Shown here: piece by piece, positions 8,121-45,810 of the stretch | Numbering within the stretch: position 1 is the stretch's first letter | How the letters are laid out: every line of letters begins with the position of its first letter | From: a virus | Lineage: Duplodnaviria > Heunggongvirae > Uroviricota > Caudoviricetes | IMG/VR virus record: IMGVR_UViG_2521172732_000010 | DNA: 45,810 nucleotides | Reading direction: 5' to 3' (one strand) | Position numbers and translations under genes: made by a program | The notes under the pieces: model-generated | Seen by the model: only the letters and a program-made list of their open reading frames with translations | The model's database searches: none | What the model was told of the DNA's origin: nothing

Positions 8121-8146
8121 GAAAGAAAAAAGGGGCGAATGCCCCT
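8121..8146 (-). terminator. intrinsic terminator after the repressor gene
   Basis: Minus-strand hairpin ggggcattcgcccc followed by a T-rich tail (tttttctttc), directly after the cI stop. Confidence 0.6.
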
Positions 8147-31942: not shown

Positions 31943-32268
31943 AAACCTTCCGCTGGAAAGTGAAACCCGGTATGGATGTGGCTTCGGCCCCTTCCGTAAG
32001 AAAGGTGCGCTTTGGTGATGGCTATTCCCAGCGAGCGCCTGCCGGGCTGAATGCCGACCTGAAAACGTACAGCGTGACGCTTTCTGTTCCCCGTTGGGAG
32101 GCCACGGCGCTTGAGTCGTTTCTGGCTGAGCACGGGGGCTGGAAAGCCTTTCTGTGGACGCCGCCTTATGAGTGGCGGCAGATAAAGGTGACCTGCGCAA
32201 AATGGTCGTCGCGGGTCAGTATGCTGCGTGTTGAGTTCAGCGCAGAGTTTGAACAGGTGGTGAACTGA
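31939..32268 (+). CDS. M: tail tip protein M
   Basis: 109-aa ORF MKTFRWKVKPGMDVASAPSVRKVRFGDGYSQRAPAG... Confidence 0.9.
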   Translation: MKTFRWKVKPGMDVASAPSVRKVRFGDGYSQRAPAGLNADLKTYSVTLSVPRWEATALESFLAEHGGWKAFLWTPPYEWRQIKVTCAKWSSRVSMLRVEFSAEFEQVVN

Positions 32269-32965
32269 TGCAGGATATCCGGCAGGAAACACTGAATGAA
32301 TGCACCCGTGCGGAGCAGTCGGCCAGCGTGGTGCTTTGGGAAATCGATCTGACAGAGGTCGGTGGAGAACGTTATTTTTCTGTAATGAGCAGAACGAAAA
32401 AGGTGAGCCGGTCACCTGGCAGGGGCGACAGTATCAGCCGTATCCCATTCAGGGGAGTGGTTTTGAACTGAATGGCAAAGGCACCAGTACGCGCCCCACG
32501 CTGACGGTTTCTAACCTGTACGGTATGGTCACCGGGATGGCGGAAGATCTGCAGAGTCTGGTCGGCGGAACGGTGGTCCGGCGTAAGGTTTACGCCCGTT
32601 TTCTGGATGCGGTGAACTTCGTCAACGGAAACAGTGACGCCGATCCGGAGCAGGAGGTGATCAGCCGCTGGCGCATTGAGCAGTGCAGCGAACTGAGCGC
32701 GGTGAGTGCCTCTTTTGTACTGTCCACGCCGACGGAAACGGACGGCGCTGTTTTTCCGGGACGTATCATGCTGGCCAACACCTGCACCTGGACCTATCGC
32801 GGCGATGAGTGCGGTTATCACGGTCCGGCGGTCGCGGATGAATATGACCAGCCAACGTCCGATATCACGAAGGATAAATGCAGCAAATGCCTGAGCGGTT
32901 GTAAGTTCCGCAATAACGTCGGCAACTTTGGCGGCTTCCTTTCCATTAACAAACTTTCGCAGTAA
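32268..32965 (+). pseudogene. L: tail tip protein L, frame-disrupted as sequenced
   Basis: MQDIRQETLNECTRAEQSASVVLWEIDLTEVGGERYF in one frame, then FCNEQNEKGEPVTWQGRQYQ... to the stop in the -1 frame; junction is a T-run (32375-32379). Confidence 0.8.
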
Positions 32966-34340: not shown

Positions 34341-37742
<3,402 letters not shown>

Positions 37743-37808: not shown

Positions 37809-38408
37809 ATGCGTAAACTTTATGCCGCCATTTTGTCCGCAGCCATCTGTCTGGCCGTATCCGGTGCGCCTGCATGGGCGTCTGAACATCAGTCCACGCT
37901 GAGCGCGGGCTATCTTCATGCCTCGACGAACGTTCCCGGCAGTGATGATCTGAACGGGATTAACGTGAAATACCGTTATGAGTTTACGGACACACTGGGG
38001 ATGGTGACGTCGTTCAGCTATGCAGGAGACAAGAATCGCCAGCTGACCCATTACAGCGATACCCGCTGGCATGAAGATTCCGTTCGTAACCGCTGGTTCA
38101 GCGTAATGGCGGGGCCGTCTGTGCGCGTGAATGAATGGTTCAGCGCGTATGCGATGGCGGGTGTGGCTTACAGCCGTGTGTCGACTTTCTCCGGGGATTA
38201 TCTCCGCGTAACTGACAACAAGGGGAAAACGCACGACGTGCTGACCGGAAGTGATGACGGTCGCCACAGCAACACGTCTCCGGCGTGGGGAGCTGGCGTG
38301 CAGTTTAACCCGACCGAATCCGTGGCCATTGATATTGCTTATGAAGGCTCCAGCAGTGGCGACTGGCGCACTGACGGTTTCATCGTGGGTGTCGGTTATA
38401 AGTTCTGA
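37809..38408 (+). CDS. lom: Lom outer-membrane protein (Ail/Lom family)
   Basis: 199-aa ORF with signal peptide MRKLYAAILSAAICLAVSGAPAWA and beta-barrel-like sequence. Confidence 0.9.
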   Translation: MRKLYAAILSAAICLAVSGAPAWASEHQSTLSAGYLHASTNVPGSDDLNGINVKYRYEFTDTLGMVTSFSYAGDKNRQLTHYSDTRWHEDSVRNRWFSVMAGPSVRVNEWFSAYAMAGVAYSRVSTFSGDYLRVTDNKGKTHDVLTGSDDGRHSNTSPAWGAGVQFNPTESVAIDIAYEGSSSGDWRTDGFIVGVGYKF

Positions 38409-38472
38409 TTAGCCAGGTAACACAGTGTTATGACAGCCCGCCGGTTCAGGCGGGCTTTTTTGTGGGGTGAAT

Positions 38473-41368
38473 ATGGCAGTAAAGATTTCAGGTGTACTGA
38501 AAGACGGCACAGGAAAACCGGTACAGAACTGCATAATCCAGCTGAAAGCAAAACGTAACAGCACCACGGTGGTGGTGAACACGCTGGCCTCAGAAAATCC
38601 GGATGAAGCCGGGCGTTACAGTATGGACGTTGAGTACGGTCAGTACAGCGTTATTCTGTTGGTGGAAGGGTTCCCGCCGTCACATGCCGGGACCATCACC
38701 GTGTATGAAGATTCCCGACCCGGTACGCTGAATGATTTTCTCGGTGCCATGACGGAGGATGATGCCCGTCCGGAGGCATTGCGACGTTTTGAACTGATGG
38801 TGGAAGAGGTGGCGCGTAACGCGTCCGCAGTGGCACAGAACACGGCAGCCGCGAAGAAGTCAGCCAGTGATGCCAGCACATCTGCCAGTGAGGCGGCAAC
38901 CCATGCGACTGATGCTGCAGATTCAGCACGTGCAGCCAGCACGTCAGCCGGACAGGCCGCGACGTCGGCTCAGGAGGCTTTTTCCAGCGCAGGAACGGCA
39001 TCAGCAAAAGCCTCTGAGGCATCAAAAAGTGCTGCCGCTGCAGAGTCCTCAAAAAGCGCGGCGGCTACCAGTGCCGGTGCGGCGAAAACGTCAGAAACGA
39101 ATGCGGCAGCGTCACAACAATCAGCAGCCACTTCTGCATCCACCGCGACCACGAAAGCGTCAGAAGCAGCCACTTCAGCACGGGATGCGTCGGCTTCAAA
39201 AGAGGCGGCAAAATCATCAGAAACGAACGCAGCCTCGAGCGCCAGCAGCGCAACTTCCTCGGCAACGGCGGCAGCAAATTCTGCGAAGGAGGCAAAAACG
39301 TCCGAGACGAACGCTAAGTCTTCTGAAACGGCAGCGGGACAGAGCGCCTCAGCTGCGGCAGGCTCAAAAACAGCGGCTGCGTCGTCTGCCAGTGCCGCGT
39401 CAACAAGTGCCGGGCAGGCCTCAGCCAGTGCCACCGCCGCCGGAAAATCGGCAGAAAGTGCTGCATCGTCTGCTTCAACAGCCACAACGAATGCTGGCGA
39501 AGCCGCTGTACAGGCCAGCGCAGCAGCGAGGTCTGCTTCCGCAGCGAAGACATCCGAGACGAACGCGAAAGCGTCGGAAACCAGCGCAGAATCCTCAAAA
39601 ACGGCTGCCGCATCATCCGCCAGTTCGGCGGCGTCATCGGCATCATCTGCGTCTGCTTCAAAAGATGAGGCGACCAGACAGGCGTCAGCAGCGAAGGGCA
39701 GCGCCACGACGGCATCCACGAAGGCGACAGAGGCAGCTGGTAGTGCGACGGCAGCAGCTCAGAGCAAAAGTACGGCGGAATCTGCAGCAACGCGCGCTGA
39801 GACAGCGGCAAAAACGGGCAGAGGATATTGCATCCGCCGTGGCGCTTGAGGATGCGAGCACGACGAAAAAGGGGATAGTACAGCTCAGCAGCGCGACCAA
39901 CAGCACGTCTGAAACGCTGGCGGCAACGCCAAAGGCAGTAAAAGCAGCCAATGACAATGCTGAGAAACGTCTGCAGAAAGATCAGAACGGTGCGGATATC
40001 CCTGGCAAAGACACCTTTACGAAAAATATTGGTGCCTGCCGTGCCTTCGGTGGGTCAGTAAGCACAACAACAGGAGACTGGACGACTGCACAGTTTATCG
40101 AGTGGCTGGATTCTCAGGGAGCATTTAACCATCCATACTGGATGTGCAAGGGTTCCTGGTCTTATGGCAATAATAAAATCATTACTGATACTGGTTGCGG
40201 TAATATTCATCTCGCCGGAGCTGTCATTGAAGTAATGGGGATAAAGTCAGCGATGACGATCCGCATTACCACACCGACCACCTCCACTGGTGGTGGAACA
40301 ACTAACGCCCAGTTTACCTATATTAATCACGGAACAGATTATTCACCTGGCTGGCGAAGGGACTATAACTCCAGAAATAAGCCAACGGCATCAGAGATCG
40401 GGGCGTTACCGTCAGGTGGAACAGCAGTATCATCAGTTAATCTGGCTTCAAAAGGTCGGGTAACTGCGCTTACAGACAATACGCAGGGGGCAACAGGTCT
40501 TGAGTTATACGAGGTGTATAACAACGGATATCCAACAGCGTATGGAAATATTATTCACCTGAAAGGGATGACAGCCGTTGGCGAAGGTGAGTTACTCATC
40601 GGCTGGAGTGGTACAAGCGGTGCTCATGCTCCGGCATTTATTCGTTCACGACGGGATACGACCGACGCAAACTGGTCGCCGTGGGCGCAGCTTTACACCT
40701 CAGCTCATCCTCCTGCAGAGTTTTATCCAGTCGGTGCACCAATCCCGTGGCCATCAGATACCGTTCCGTCTGGCTATGCCCTGATGCAGGGGCAGACTTT
40801 TGACAAATCTGCTTACCCGAAACTTGCAGCCGCTTATCCGTCAGGCGTGATCCCTGATATGCGTGGCTGGACGATTAAGGGCAAACCTGCCAGTGGTCGG
40901 GCCGTATTGTCTCAGGAACAGGACGGTATTAAATCGCACACCCACAGCGCCAGCGCATCCAGTACGGATTTGGGTACGAAAACCACATCGTCGTTTGATT
41001 ACGGCACTAAATCCACGAATAACACCGGGGCACATACACACAGTGTGAGCGGTACAGCCGCAAGTGCCGGAAACCATACTCATAGTGTCACAGGCGCATC
41101 AGCAGTCAGCCAGTGGTCACAAAATGGGTCAGTACATAAGGTAGTGTCTGCGGCCAGTGTGAATACAAGTGCTGCAGGAGCGCACACTCATAGTGTCAGC
41201 GGCACAGCTGCATCTGCAGGTGCTCACGCACATACTGTCGGTATTGGTGCTCATACGCACTCTGTTGCGATTGGTTCACATGGACACACCATCACCGTTA
41301 ACGCTGCGGGTAACGCGGAAAACACCGTCAAAAACATCGCATTTAACTACATTGTGAGGCTTGCATAA
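38473..41368 (+). pseudogene. stf: side tail fibre Stf, frame-disrupted as sequenced
   Basis: N-terminal frame MAVKISGVLKDGTGKPVQNC... ends at 39849; the +1 frame continues ...[17 protein letters not shown]... to the Stf C-terminus ...[15 protein letters not shown]; junction is an A-run (39810-39814). Confidence 0.75.
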
Positions 41369-41949
41369 TGGCATTCAGAATGAGTGAACAACCACGGACC
41401 ATAAAAATTTATAATCTGCTGACCGGAACTAATGAATTTATTGGTGAAGGTGACGCATATATTCCGCCTCATACAGGTCTGCCAGCAAACAGTACCTATA
41501 TTGCACCGCCAGATATTCCGGCTGGCTTCGTGGCTGTTTTCAACAGTGATGAGTCATCGTGGCATCTCGTTGAAGATCATCGGGGTAAAACGGTTTATGA
41601 CGTGGCTTCCGGCGACGCGTTATTTATTTCTGAACTCGGCTCATTACCGGAAAATGTTACCTGGTTATCGCCGGAAGGGGAGTTTCAGAAGTGGAACGGC
41701 ACAGCCTGGGTGAAAGATGCAGAAGCAGAAAAACTGTTCCGGATCCGGGAGGCGGAAGAAACAAAAAACAGCCTGATGCAGGTAGCCAGTGAGCATATTG
41801 CGCCACTTCAGGATGCTGTAGATCTGGAAATCGCAACGGAGGAAGAAACCTCATTGCTGGAAGCCTGGAAAAAGTATCGGGTGTTGCTGAACCGTGTTGA
41901 TACATCAACTGCACCTGATATTGAGTGGCCTGTAATACCTGAAGTTTAA
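41368..41949 (+). CDS. tfa: tail fibre assembly protein
   Basis: 193-aa [40 protein letters not shown]... Confidence 0.9.
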
Positions 41950-42068: not shown

Positions 42069-42959
42069 TTAGTTTTTACTATTTATCTTTGTTTGTGGTT
42101 CTCCTTCAGCAAGCTCAGCGCCAGTGACAGGATTGATGTCTTCATGGGATTTCAACCTTGTTGCCATAGCTTTTATCATAGCTTCTTGCTTGGTCGAAAG
42201 ATTTATCGAGGCCTTCCCATCCCCACCGTCAACCGCTGGAACTGGATCGGAAACATAGTCAAAGTTTTCATCACTGTTCCAACTACCTCTGACGTCTTCA
42301 CCTTCTGACATGTTGTAATATACGTTTTTGTATTTCTCAAGTGGTGGTAATTTTCCTGGTGGAAAGGTGTTACGAATTGAATGTAATGCTTTTTCAAATG
42401 AAAGCATGTGTGCTGCTTCCCTGGTCATTAAAAATGCCAGAGTGTCTTTTACTCCAGGATCATCAGTAACATTAATGAGACGTTCGTAAATGATCTTTGC
42501 CCGAGCTTCAGCTGCAATATTTGAACGAAGATCGGCCGTGACTTCGCCAATAGTATCAACATAAGCTGCAGTCCAGGGTACTCCAGCTGAATTAGTTAAT
42601 GCTGGGCCTCCTCCGTAGAGGAGAGAAGTTATATGGCTATCATTGCCATTTTGAGTTAAGGAACGGTAAAGCTCAGCTTCATTCTCAGTTCCTTCAGCAA
42701 GTGCTCCTTTTGCACCTTTGTTGAGCATACCAACAAGAGAACCAATAATTTCGAGATGACTTAGTTCTTCTGTTGCTATGTCCATCAGCATATCCCTTCG
42801 GCCTGCATCTTCATCACTTAAGCCTTGAGTGAAGTATCGGCATGCTGCTGCAAGCTCACCCTGTGGCCCACCGAATTGTTCTAAGAGTAGATTAGCCAAG
42901 CCTGGGTTTGGCTCACTTACACGTACTGTATATTGAAGTTTTTTCACGTGTCTAAACAT
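42069..42959 (-). CDS. katN: manganese catalase (KatN-like, ferritin-like superfamily)
   Basis: 296-aa ORF with Mn-catalase-like sequence (LSDEDAGRRDMLMDIATEELSHLEIIG...), last gene of a yciG-yciF-yciE-katN arrangement. Confidence 0.75.
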   Translation of the reverse strand: MFRHVKKLQYTVRVSEPNPGLANLLLEQFGGPQGELAAACRYFTQGLSDEDAGRRDMLMDIATEELSHLEIIGSLVGMLNKGAKGALAEGTENEAELYRSLTQNGNDSHITSLLYGGGPALTNSAGVPWTAAYVDTIGEVTADLRSNIAAEARAKIIYERLINVTDDPGVKDTLAFLMTREAAHMLSFEKALHSIRNTFPPGKLPPLEKYKNVYYNMSEGEDVRGSWNSDENFDYVSDPVPAVDGGDGKASINLSTKQEAMIKAMATRLKSHEDINPVTGAELAEGEPQTKINSKN

Positions 42960-42977
42960 AATGCCTCCTCAAAAGAA

Positions 42978-43484
42978 TTATTTTTTGGCTTCAACTCCAT
43001 CAATTTCAGATCTGACCATGAATTGCTCAGTGGTGTCAGGAATATGGTTAAGAAGCCATTCAGCCATTTGTTTTTCTTCATTAAGAATTGCTTCAATAAT
43101 GGGTACTGAAGCTGTATCACCCGCATTTTTGGCTGCTGCGAGAAGAGATGTGTAACACGCAATTTCAAATTGTTCGAACACATAGCCACTGATCGAACCT
43201 TTGACAATTTCATCAGATGGAAAAATTCCACCAATGGATTGTCCAAACGCGGCCATTTTACTCATAGAGTCTTTAATGACAGAGCGCGAAATATTATTAC
43301 GATCAAGTATGCTTTCAAGCTGTGAAAGCTGGTTCTTTGTTTCGCTAATGTGCTGCTCAATTCTGGAACGTAACTCAGGATAGTTTTCTATCCGGCTGGC
43401 CATAGACTCAAGCATTTTTTCAGCTTGTTTTTCCATCGCATGTGCATCACGAAGCCAGTCATGGTAATGTTCAATTCTATTCAT
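42978..43484 (-). CDS. yciE: YciE-like ferritin-like (DUF892) stress protein
   Basis: 168-aa ORF MNRIEHYHDWLRDAHAMEKQAEKMLESMASRIENYPELR... Confidence 0.8.
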   Translation of the reverse strand: MNRIEHYHDWLRDAHAMEKQAEKMLESMASRIENYPELRSRIEQHISETKNQLSQLESILDRNNISRSVIKDSMSKMAAFGQSIGGIFPSDEIVKGSISGYVFEQFEIACYTSLLAAAKNAGDTASVPIIEAILNEEKQMAEWLLNHIPDTTEQFMVRSEIDGVEAKK

Positions 43485-43520
43485 AATCTGTTTATCCTAA
43501 AAGAAATTGAAGTCTATAAT

Positions 43521-44027
43521 TCAGGAGTTATCCTGAGCTTTTTTATTAACGTTATTAAATGCCAGGTCTGTTAATTTGACATCAGTAGCTTTTTCCTCTT
43601 CCAGTGTTTCTTTCAGGAGTTTAGCCGCTTTTTTATATCCTAATTGCTCAGCGAGTGTTACCAAAGTGCCATAACTGGCAATTTCATAGTGCTCTACTTT
43701 TTGTGCTGCAGCAATCAATGCAGCATCACGTACTTCATTTTTATCAGTGCTTTCAATTACCTCATTCGCCTCTTCGATAAGTCCTTCCATTGCGGCACAC
43801 TTAATTCTTTTCAATTTAAGACCATCTTCAGAATCAACAACCTGATCGATGCGTTCAATTTGACCATGTGTCTCATCAAGATGTGACTGAAAAGCAGCGG
43901 TTAATTTATCACTATATGCAGAGCGACTAAGTTTAGACAGTGCCTTTGTTAGTTGTTTCTCAGCGCTGTATGTATCCGATAATAAGTGGATGAAGATATC
44001 TTCAACAGATTTAATTTGCATAATCAC
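43521..44027 (-). CDS. yciF: YciF-like ferritin-like (DUF892) stress protein
   Basis: 168-aa ORF ...SVEDIFIHLLSDTYSAEKQLTKALSKL...; start codon uncertain. Confidence 0.8.
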   Translation of the reverse strand: MIMQIKSVEDIFIHLLSDTYSAEKQLTKALSKLSRSAYSDKLTAAFQSHLDETHGQIERIDQVVDSEDGLKLKRIKCAAMEGLIEEANEVIESTDKNEVRDAALIAAAQKVEHYEIASYGTLVTLAEQLGYKKAAKLLKETLEEEKATDVKLTDLAFNNVNKKAQDNS

Positions 44028-44099
44028 TCCAGAGTTTTCACTGCGAGCCCGTAGGCTCGCAGTTAGCTTCAGTTATTCACGAATGTAGGGGGTGATAAA

Positions 44100-44282
44100 T
44101 TAAGAGCCAGATTTACGGCCGCCACCATGGCTATTCTGACCACCTTTTTTCCCTGCTTCTGATGCTCTTTGTGGATCGTTTTTAAAATTACCGCCACTAT
44201 GTTGGCCGCCTTTACTACCAGCGTCAGAAGCTTTTTGTCGATCTTCAGCGAAATTACCTGCACCGCCACGATGTTCGGTCAT
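44100..44282 (-). CDS. yciG: YciG-like KGG-repeat general stress protein
   Basis: 60-aa Gly-rich ORF with repeated KGGQ-type motifs. Confidence 0.75.
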   Translation of the reverse strand: MTEHRGGAGNFAEDRQKASDAGSKGGQHSGGNFKNDPQRASEAGKKGGQNSHGGGRKSGS

Positions 44283-44724
44283 ATCATTTCTCCTCTGATT
44301 TTCAAATTGTAAATAACATGTGCCTTGTCAGCACCCAATTAACTCTAGTAACAAATAAGAAAGTGTCAAATAAGAGATTGGTATGCGCATCTTAATGTGA
44401 GAAATAGCAATTGTAAAAATGTGTACTCAGTGAGTATAATCTATTGATATCTTGGTGATTAACGGAAAGTTTAGGTTGTAACTCAAAAGATTAATAAATC
44501 TAAATTTACATTTCTATATCTTTTGATGTGTATGGCGTTGTTTTTCTCAATCAGAACATTCTAAAAAATAATTTAATTACACGGCGGTAGTTGTTAATGT
44601 TTTTACGACTCTTCCTAATGAAGTCTGTTTCTTGGATAAATAGAGAAATTTTATCTTAAGGACTAATTACAAAAACATCTATATAGCCACAGGAATCATT
44701 ATTGTACTTAACTACAATATTTGA

Positions 44725-44774
44725 GAGTAAAAATTAAACCGCAGACACGGCGTATGCAAGAACGTGCTGCGGTT
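44725..44774 (-). terminator. intrinsic terminator downstream of the methyltransferase gene
   Basis: Minus-strand hairpin aaccgcagcacg...cgtgtctgcggtt followed by taattttt. Confidence 0.6.
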
Positions 44775-44779
44775 GGATG

Positions 44780-45448
44780 CTATTTTTTCCCTGAAGCGGA
44801 AAACATTACTACAGTACCTTGAACCTTGGTTTTAACATTCTCGAAATGCTCTGAGAGTATATGTGTTAAGCCTTCTTCGGAATCTTTTGTGTTTGAAAAG
44901 ATGCCTTTCTGATTGTAAATGCGCATCAGTTTTTGACCGAAGCTATTGTGCACAACTCCATCGCCAAGAATTGTGGCTCCGTATAGAGTTCCATCGTCAG
45001 TTAAGGCCTGCGCCGCATTGCGTATTACACAGCTTTTTGTAGATATATTTCCAGGCAGGCAGTGAAGAAGGTAAAACATGGAAATGGAATCAAATTGACC
45101 ATGTAACGCCGCGGGATAAGGTTCAAAAACATCATGGCTAATTTTATGTTTAATTTTTGATTCCCCAGCCCTTGTAGATGCCGCGTTCAGGCTAGCTTCG
45201 TTCAAATCCATTAAAGATATCAGACTACTCTCAGGTACGTGAGTAAGGTAAAACCCAGTTCCAACACCAATATCCAGATGGTTGTTACCTAAATGTTCCA
45301 GAAAGTGTGGAAGAAGGTGTTCCTTTGTAGGACATCCCCATGCAAGACGATTTGATACTCCCAAAACCCACCAGTCATAAAGCTTTAGGGTAAGTGGTGT
45401 GTAAATTTTAGCCCCATCATCTGTGTTTTTTTTCATTAATTTCACCAT
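44780..45448 (-). CDS. class I SAM-dependent methyltransferase (substrate unknown)
   Basis: 222-aa ORF with motif I LDIGVGTGF. Confidence 0.65.
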   Translation of the reverse strand: MVKLMKKNTDDGAKIYTPLTLKLYDWWVLGVSNRLAWGCPTKEHLLPHFLEHLGNNHLDIGVGTGFYLTHVPESSLISLMDLNEASLNAASTRAGESKIKHKISHDVFEPYPAALHGQFDSISMFYLLHCLPGNISTKSCVIRNAAQALTDDGTLYGATILGDGVVHNSFGQKLMRIYNQKGIFSNTKDSEEGLTHILSEHFENVKTKVQGTVVMFSASGKK

Positions 45449-45504
45449 GTTATAGTTTTATTTGTGAATTAAATCAATTATGGCGATGAATTACAAGGGG
45501 TTAA

Positions 45505-45810
45505 ATGCTGCCGCAGCATAGCGATATTGAAATAGCCTGGTATGCTGCGATACAGCAGGAGCCGAATGGCTGGAAGACCGTCACCACACAGTTCTACATC
45601 CAGGAATTCAGTGAGTATATTGCGCCACTGCAGGATGCTGTAGATCTGGAAATCGCAACGGAGGAAGAAAGATCGTTGCTGGAGGCATGGAATAAATATC
45701 GGGTATTGTTGAATCGTGTTGATACATCAGTAGCTCTGGGTATGAAGCTGTTTGTAACTCATGTTACAGTAATGGCTATTACTATCTCGAAGGTGCAAAA
45801 TGTATATTGA
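45505..45810 (+). pseudogene. truncated tail fibre assembly (tfa) C-terminal remnant
   Basis: Contains ...[37 protein letters not shown], about 90 percent identical at DNA level to 41788-41907 of tfa, but lacks the tfa N-terminal region and has a divergent tail. Confidence 0.6.
45610..45729 (+). repeat. about 120-bp direct repeat of tfa 41788-41907
   Basis: agtgag(c/t)atattgcgccact(t/g)caggatgctgtagatctggaaatcgcaacggaggaagaaa... present at both positions in the same orientation. Confidence 0.85.

Follow-up and report, generated by a model that had tools for sequence, protein, structure and literature searches.

The window analysed here, a stretch of 45,810 nucleotides, carries a lambdoid prophage whose integration site in Escherichia coli DEC15E is next to icd. 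Positions 24344-45810 of the window are 100% identical to contig AIHS01000015.1 (GCA_000250575.2), a 2012 draft from the DECA project whose proteins carry the name E. coli DEC15E.

The side tail fibre gene and its neighbours

The gene J (34344..37742, + strand), encoding the tail tip host-specificity protein, sets a lambda-like order J-lom-stf-tfa, in which lom (37809..38408, + strand), encoding an Ail/Lom outer-membrane protein, is the upstream neighbour of stf, as in lambda. The side tail fibre gene stf itself spans 38473..41368 on the + strand, corresponding to 2,895 nt or 964 codons after removal of one extra A, and it is followed directly by tfa (41368..41949, + strand), whose start overlaps the stf stop at 41368. 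The product of tfa is the tail fibre assembly chaperone (PF02413 Caudo_TAP, E=3.4e-45).

The repaired Stf protein begins with the prophage tail fibre N-terminal domain (PF08400, residues 1-134, E=6.5e-71, matched over the full profile length), which is followed by a strongly skewed stretch at residues 135-446 composed of 38% Ala, 25% Ser and 12% Thr. The remainder, encoded at 39815..41368 (+ strand) and comprising residues 448-964, carries a conserved joint up to the motif TPKAVK, a central part unrelated to lambda, a collar domain at 40733-40876 (PF07484, E=6.7e-12) and finally a His-rich receptor-binding part resembling that of lambda Stf. The PF08400 domain, the place after J and lom and directly before the chaperone gene, and the collar with its His-rich C-terminus together mark the gene as probably an ordinary lambda-family stf of 964 codons followed by tfa. 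The identification as a lambda-type side tail fibre gene, made previously by a sequence-only reading from the open reading frames, thus holds.

The repaired 964-aa protein has exactly the sequence of WP_024183000.1 from E. coli O111:H21 strain 15A (NZ_CP077477.1), the nearest complete genome, in which stf is one 2,895-nt CDS; the sole difference over the whole gene is the extra A of the window (A5 versus A4). The other relatives likewise have stf annotated or called as a single 964-aa ORF, and phage PhiR29_1 has a 966-aa product. In the temperate phages PhiR29_1 and PhiR29_2, stf is 96.9% identical over its full length to the gene studied here, spans 2,895 nt as in 15A, carries A4 at the run and is annotated as a single side tail fibre gene with one continuous ORF. 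The stf of Ur-lambda (774 aa) belongs to the same family and occupies the same J-lom-stf-tfa position, and the homology covers the N-terminal ~330 aa (61% identity) and the last 245 aa (residues 530-774, 69%). The window Stf exceeds it by 190 aa, has a more extended Ala/Ser-rich shaft and differs in the central region.

In lambda, the N-terminus of Stf reportedly joins the tail and the C-terminus binds a cell-surface receptor, a picture credited to Hendrix and Duda in 1992. The same authors are said to have found that lambda Stf requires Tfa to assemble but is not needed to form plaques, and that lambda PaPa tolerates the loss of stf.

The frame switch and the lambda PaPa lesion

In the deposited window stf is broken at 39810-39814, where all relatives read on in one continuous ORF. 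The ORF map places the start of the N-terminal frame at the ATG at 38473 (a GTG at 38467 lies in the same frame) and its end at the TGA at 39847-39849, giving a product of 458 or 460 aa. As deposited, this frame (38473..39849, + strand) encodes 447 native residues and then 11 out-of-frame residues before the TGA. The frame shifted by +1 relative to it is open from 38867 through 41368. That the two open frames overlap over such a length is due to the Ala/Ser/Thr-rich composition of residues 135-446, and the same skewed composition accounts for a 249-aa antisense ORF at 38970-39719.

Alignment to NZ_CP077477.1 and the other relatives located the switch at the A5 run at 39810..39814 (+ strand), which is A4 in all relatives, so that the change in stf amounts to a one-base indel in a mononucleotide run (A4 to A5). 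As deposited, the codons of the first frame read GCA AAA ACG GGC AGA GGA TAT TGC ATC CGC CGT GGC GCT TGA; with one A removed, they read GCA AAA CGG GCA GAG GAT ATT and continue in the native frame. The ends of the two frames, the +1 direction of the switch and its assignment to one extra A at this run had all been proposed beforehand from the letters alone, and the alignment bears them out.

We considered whether the A5 run might be functional, either as a recoding site, with a +1 slip of tRNA-Lys on A-AAA-A, or as an on/off switch of the fibre operating through run length. Read from the sequence, AAA-A at the run permits re-pairing of the tRNA, and a slip from AAA at 39811-39813 to 39812-39814 would recreate ...AAKRAEDI..., that is, the wild-type protein exactly. 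However, A5 is kept nowhere and every homologue has A4 within one continuous ORF, so the conserved shift site and two-frame arrangement of a programmed +1 frameshift are lacking in this family. Furthermore, the 0-frame codon after the slip site is ACG, neither a stop nor notably slow, inspection by eye revealed no upstream Shine-Dalgarno-like stimulator as in prfB, and a run of four to five A is not long enough for transcriptional slippage or phase variation to be efficient. A functional role of the A5 run is consequently highly improbable.

The split nevertheless resembles the well-known lesion of laboratory lambda: in both PaPa and the window a one-base change in a short homopolymer separates an N-terminal ORF of stf from a C-terminal frame. 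Alignment of J02459 to KT232076, in which stf is intact, showed that in PaPa the CCCC run at lambda 20832-20835 is one C shorter, which splits the gene into orf-401 and orf-314; it is because of this loss that orf-401 ends in ...NRKAHWTVRH followed by a stop. The window has instead gained an A. Alignment to Ur-lambda stf and PaPa matched its A-run to lambda 20672-20675 (GGCAAAACGTGCAGAAGAT), which precedes the PaPa site by ~160 nt (~53 codons), and thus confirmed that the two positions differ. The PaPa lesion had been placed "around TPKAVK", which is right as an approximate vicinity; the lesion itself (between ...NRKAP and LDSP) lies downstream of TPKAVK, not at it. The region of that lesion had also been described as intact in the window. 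The frame is indeed open there, but the homology between the window Stf and lambda Stf ends just past TPKAVK (39926-39943), which leaves the PaPa site without a true counterpart in the window, and no loss of a C of the PaPa type occurs in it. A further difference concerns the nature of the two changes: that of PaPa has been verified as a mutation of a phage stock, and that of the window is most likely an assembly error.

One-base indels of the DEC15E draft

The drafts of the DECA collection have accessions AIEV through AIHS (PMC3558956). Since AIFK is DEC4A and AIHS is DEC15E, the accessions apparently follow strain order, from which we infer that AIHO, AIHP and AIHQ are DEC15A, DEC15B and DEC15C. 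Serotype, accession order and near-identity are the grounds for taking the RefSeq "strain 15A" to be DEC15A and AIHO to be a draft of DEC15A. The relatives compared were finished 15A, DEC15B (AIHP, L026), DEC15C (AIHQ, L024), the assemblies L025, L028 and L031, and the metagenome scaffold L004; five to seven near-identical assemblies were set against the DEC15E draft over ~51 kb.

Over its whole length, the window differs from finished 15A by six substitutions, five one-base indels, a 1,057-bp insertion at 1648-2704 and the loss of 4 nt from Q after 14096. This Q deletion is also present in scaffold L004, as are two of the substitutions, and all three are therefore real lineage markers. The deletion frameshifts Q after 27 codons, and in the capsid gene E a change of AAA to TAA (ochre) at 25670-25672 is present in all DEC15 genomes, including finished 15A. 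As both are common to independent assemblies, they are regarded as real lesions, and the prophage additionally contains a private IS903-like insertion with a 9-bp target-site duplication. A prophage that already bears such genuine-looking lesions would not be under selection against the decay of stf. These lesions thus favour a reading in which the extra A is a genuine slipped-strand +1 insertion (A4 to A5) that knocked out stf both in DEC15E and in the DEC15A stock of 2012, leaving a 458-aa N-terminal stub that lacks the receptor-binding end, as further decay of a defective prophage and as a natural parallel to the PaPa frameshift at another site. That short homopolymers are real slippage sites, that the extra A stands in the deposited sequence of two assemblies, and that loss of stf is, as reported above, tolerated in lambda PaPa speak in the same direction. 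We nonetheless regard this reading as unlikely in view of the indels described below.

The DEC15E draft displays six private one-base indels over ~51 kb. Four of them are one-base losses in runs of six to seven bases: an A is missing after 8125 (A7 to A6), a T after 14581 (T7 to T6), an A after 21601 in gpW (A6 to A5) and a T after 32374 in gpL (T6 to T5). The fifth is the gain of A at 39810 in stf, which is private among the main relatives compared (AIHO01000027.1 also has A5), and the sixth is a G gained in a host helix-turn-helix (HTH) gene just outside the window (position 19600 of L029). Four of the six (those in gpW, gpL, stf and the host HTH gene) break genes that are intact in every relative. 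Sorted by true run length, indels affected 2 of 7 seven-base runs, 2 of 41 six-base runs, 0 of 150 five-base runs and 1 of 418 four-base runs, so the rate of miscalling increases with run length. Against these six indels stand only three private substitutions (8062, 27471 and 35654). Natural divergence in E. coli produces indels and substitutions at roughly 1:10 by our estimate; a ratio of 6:3 is far above this expectation and counts against a real mutation in stf.

Some of these indels recur within the sequencing project. The 221-aa gpL fragment resulting from T6 to T5 was found in only two contigs in the whole collection, those of DEC15E and DEC4A (AIFK01000024.1), and the DEC4A copy lies in a different prophage (97% identity) with the identical T5. 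The truncated 55-aa gpW turned up in 229 blocks, and many among the contigs listed have terminase, portal, capsid and tail genes split throughout, a pattern typical of assemblies rich in errors. The A6 run of gpW has thus evidently been miscalled repeatedly. These recurring indels point to the project rather than the strain, and the recurrence of the gpL indel only inside the same project weighs against treating the stf change as a real mutation. A mismatch-repair mutator lineage was also considered as the source of the indels and rejected, as it leaves unexplained both the recurrence in DEC4A and the fact that the DEC15A draft disagrees with the finished genome.

This disagreement concerns AIHO01000027.1, the only assembly besides the DEC15E draft with A5 in stf. 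Its sequence agrees with the finished 15A chromosome at 12,878 of 12,879 bases, the sole difference being the extra A in stf, and it shares with 15A that strain's private SNP, a C at window position 45777. Should AIHO be the DEC15A draft, the extra A would be exactly the base at which two assemblies of a single strain conflict. The A5 run therefore occurs on both backgrounds of the 45777 SNP, and a real mutation would have to be gained twice, or gained once and then exactly reverted, with the finished genome on the AIHO side having A4. Besides finished 15A, A4 is found at this run in DEC15B, DEC15C, L025, L028, L031, L032 and PhiR29_1.

The presence of A5 in two separate drafts could also mean that the DEC15A and DEC15E stocks of 2012 truly carried it.

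Origin of the extra A

The distribution of A5 was surveyed more widely with a 71-nt query centred on the A-run, which found 4,563 matches in 3,366 complete E. coli records (1,167 of these records exact, with A4). None of these 3,366 records has A5 in the stf segment, a further argument against a genuine insertion. A 43-mer with A5 had no match in the GTDB species representatives or in IMG/VR, and in metagenome contigs it had a single match, in L036, a human-gut contig of 2,390 nt with a coverage of 1.24x. The stf of this contig is 90% identical, and a stretch of a few hundred bases holds five or more additional one-base insertions together with several breaks of the frame. Being error-laden at such coverage, it was rejected as independent support for A5; what the match shows is that errors can generate the A5 string. 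Searches for the exact products of the 458-aa, 460-aa and 833-aa ORFs gave no match, since the annotation of the GenBank drafts has a 509-aa fragment with a GTG start in their place; a search with this fragment led to the source contig and to AIHO. Of the four contigs with this 509-aa product, two (L031 and L032) were likewise dismissed as support for A5, as both have A4 and the fragment was called because the contig ends inside stf.

We also examined whether A4 in the finished genome could itself be the error. No indel differences were found between finished 15A and the independent surveillance assemblies L025 and L031. PGAP marked no frameshifted genes in the ~55 kb of 15A examined, the only genes marked in this segment being that of the capsid, for an internal stop, and two partial remnants. 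The A4 of the finished genome is therefore unlikely to be the mistaken call.

On this evidence the extra A is most probably a run-length miscall (A4 read as A5) in the consensus of the 2012 draft, and the true stf would be intact with 964 codons. An A4 miscalled as A5 would then have been carried into the AIHS01000015.1 consensus, with no frame change in the DNA of the bacterium. The cause was presumably sequencing chemistry or consensus calling, and the DECA genome project is said to have used 454 and/or Illumina data. The indel lies in a run, independent near-identical assemblies do not have it, and the project has an excess of indels, including recurrent ones. The same traits characterize the homopolymer-length consensus errors of draft or long-read assemblies that NCBI lists under "frameshifted proteins": these are one-base indels located in runs with a rate rising with run length, private to an assembly or project, recurring at the same run in unrelated assemblies and breaking conserved genes, as is the case here. 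The stf change departs from the typical error, since it adds a base to a run of only four; of the six indels it is the least typical.

The proposal of the sequence-only reading that the frame change is an independent biological lesion is thus not sustained: A5 occurs only in two drafts of one project, the draft shows an excess of private indels, and every independent assembly has A4. Should the extra A nevertheless be real in the DEC15A and DEC15E stocks, which we hold to be quite improbable, it would represent an independent one-base knock-out of stf, arising once or twice, in a prophage already losing capsid and late-gene functions. Such a true lesion would add one more inactivating mutation to a prophage already unable to make its capsid and would leave the existing knowledge of side tail fibres unchanged. 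The preferred explanation, a miscalled run length, has a practical side. A gene scan of the window would list stf, gpW and gpL as pseudogenes, though the evidence indicates run-length errors of the 2012 draft, and caution is warranted as a spurious parallel with the famous stf lesion of lambda PaPa may result.

Two observations concern the stf run in particular. The stf change is the only one of the indels to lie in a run as short as four, the four clearest miscalls being losses in runs of six to seven, which tells against an artefact at this site. Separately, the stf segment is present at five places in 15A, and collapse of paralogous stf copies might be a source of reproducible consensus error.

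Run-length differences in the draft assemblies

Comparison of the DEC15E draft with its relatives revealed further single-base run-length differences besides the one splitting the side tail fibre gene stf. The gpW gene (window 21473-21640) is frameshifted by shortening of a run from A6 to A5 (21602-21606), leaving a product of 55 aa, and the gpL gene (32268-32965) by a change from T6 to T5 (32375-32379), which leaves pieces of 67 aa and 221 aa. Among the compared relatives, both frameshifts were confined to the DEC15E draft. The 55-aa gpW truncation was found in 229 blocks, many of them, among the matches listed, error-riddled assemblies, and the gpL truncation was found elsewhere only in the DEC4A draft, a product of the same sequencing project as DEC15E. 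Two non-coding runs are each one base short with respect to every relative spanning them, namely an A run just downstream of cI (8126-8131, A6 versus A7) and a T run between Q and tRNA-Thr (14582-14587, T6 versus T7).

The exact 43-mer containing the extra A of the stf frame-switch run had a single source outside the 2012 drafts of that project, the human-gut metagenome contig L036 (ENA OQMN01001634.1, 1.24x coverage). Its stf is 90% identical and is riddled with single-base insertions, chiefly of an additional A.

Lesions in capsid gene E and antiterminator gene Q

The major capsid gene E (24974-25999) contains an internal ochre codon at 25670-25672, where the Lys233 codon AAA is changed to TAA. 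The identical codon is present in the finished genome of E. coli 15A, in which E is annotated as a pseudogene, and the drafts of DEC15B and DEC15C also have E broken into pieces. An ochre codon at this place predicts a prophage that cannot produce capsids, whether its stf is intact or not.

Compared with 15A, the antiterminator gene Q (14015-14529) lacks 4 nt, ATTC, after position 14096 and is cut off after 27 codons. As the identical deletion was also present in the unrelated metagenome scaffold L004 (ENA), it is, judged from the sequences, a true lineage polymorphism.

Insertion next to xis/int

A 1,057-bp IS903-like element (1648-2704) encoding an IS5-family transposase (NF033579, E=6e-107) lies within a DUF4222 gene adjoining xis/int. 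The element ends in terminal inverted repeats of 18 bp (GGCTTTGTTGAATAAATC) and is flanked by a target duplication of 9 bp (GTTCTGCCT), and the insertion looks genuine. Assembly comparison revealed that 15A and L004 lack the element, which makes it private to DEC15E among the assemblies spanning the site.

Tail-fibre region and its cargo

The Ala/Ser-rich part of stf is crossed on the minus strand by an ORF of 249 aa (38970-39719), and gene calls of the DEC drafts place a minus-strand gene of 245-249 aa here; we set this ORF aside as a compositional artefact. The gene calls on record for DEC15E and AIHO (inferred DEC15A) list no N-terminal stf fragment. The stf of a sister strain (AIHP01000010.1, inferred DEC15B; L026 14130-17156) encodes 1,008 aa and carries 132 nt extra near the conserved KRAEDI...TPKAVK joint (window 39868-39955), apparently a duplication or a mosaic patch, suggesting that this joint may be a recombination hotspot.

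About 3.7 kb downstream of the chaperone gene tfa lies a second, partial tfa copy, annotated without its N-terminus; the repeat pair (41787-41907 and 45609-45729) is 90% identical over 121 nt. Cargo genes fill the interval between the copies (42069-45450) and encode a Mn catalase, two ferritin-like DUF892 proteins, a KGG stress protein and a methyltransferase. This block has the appearance of a moron island that entered an old tail-fibre cassette.
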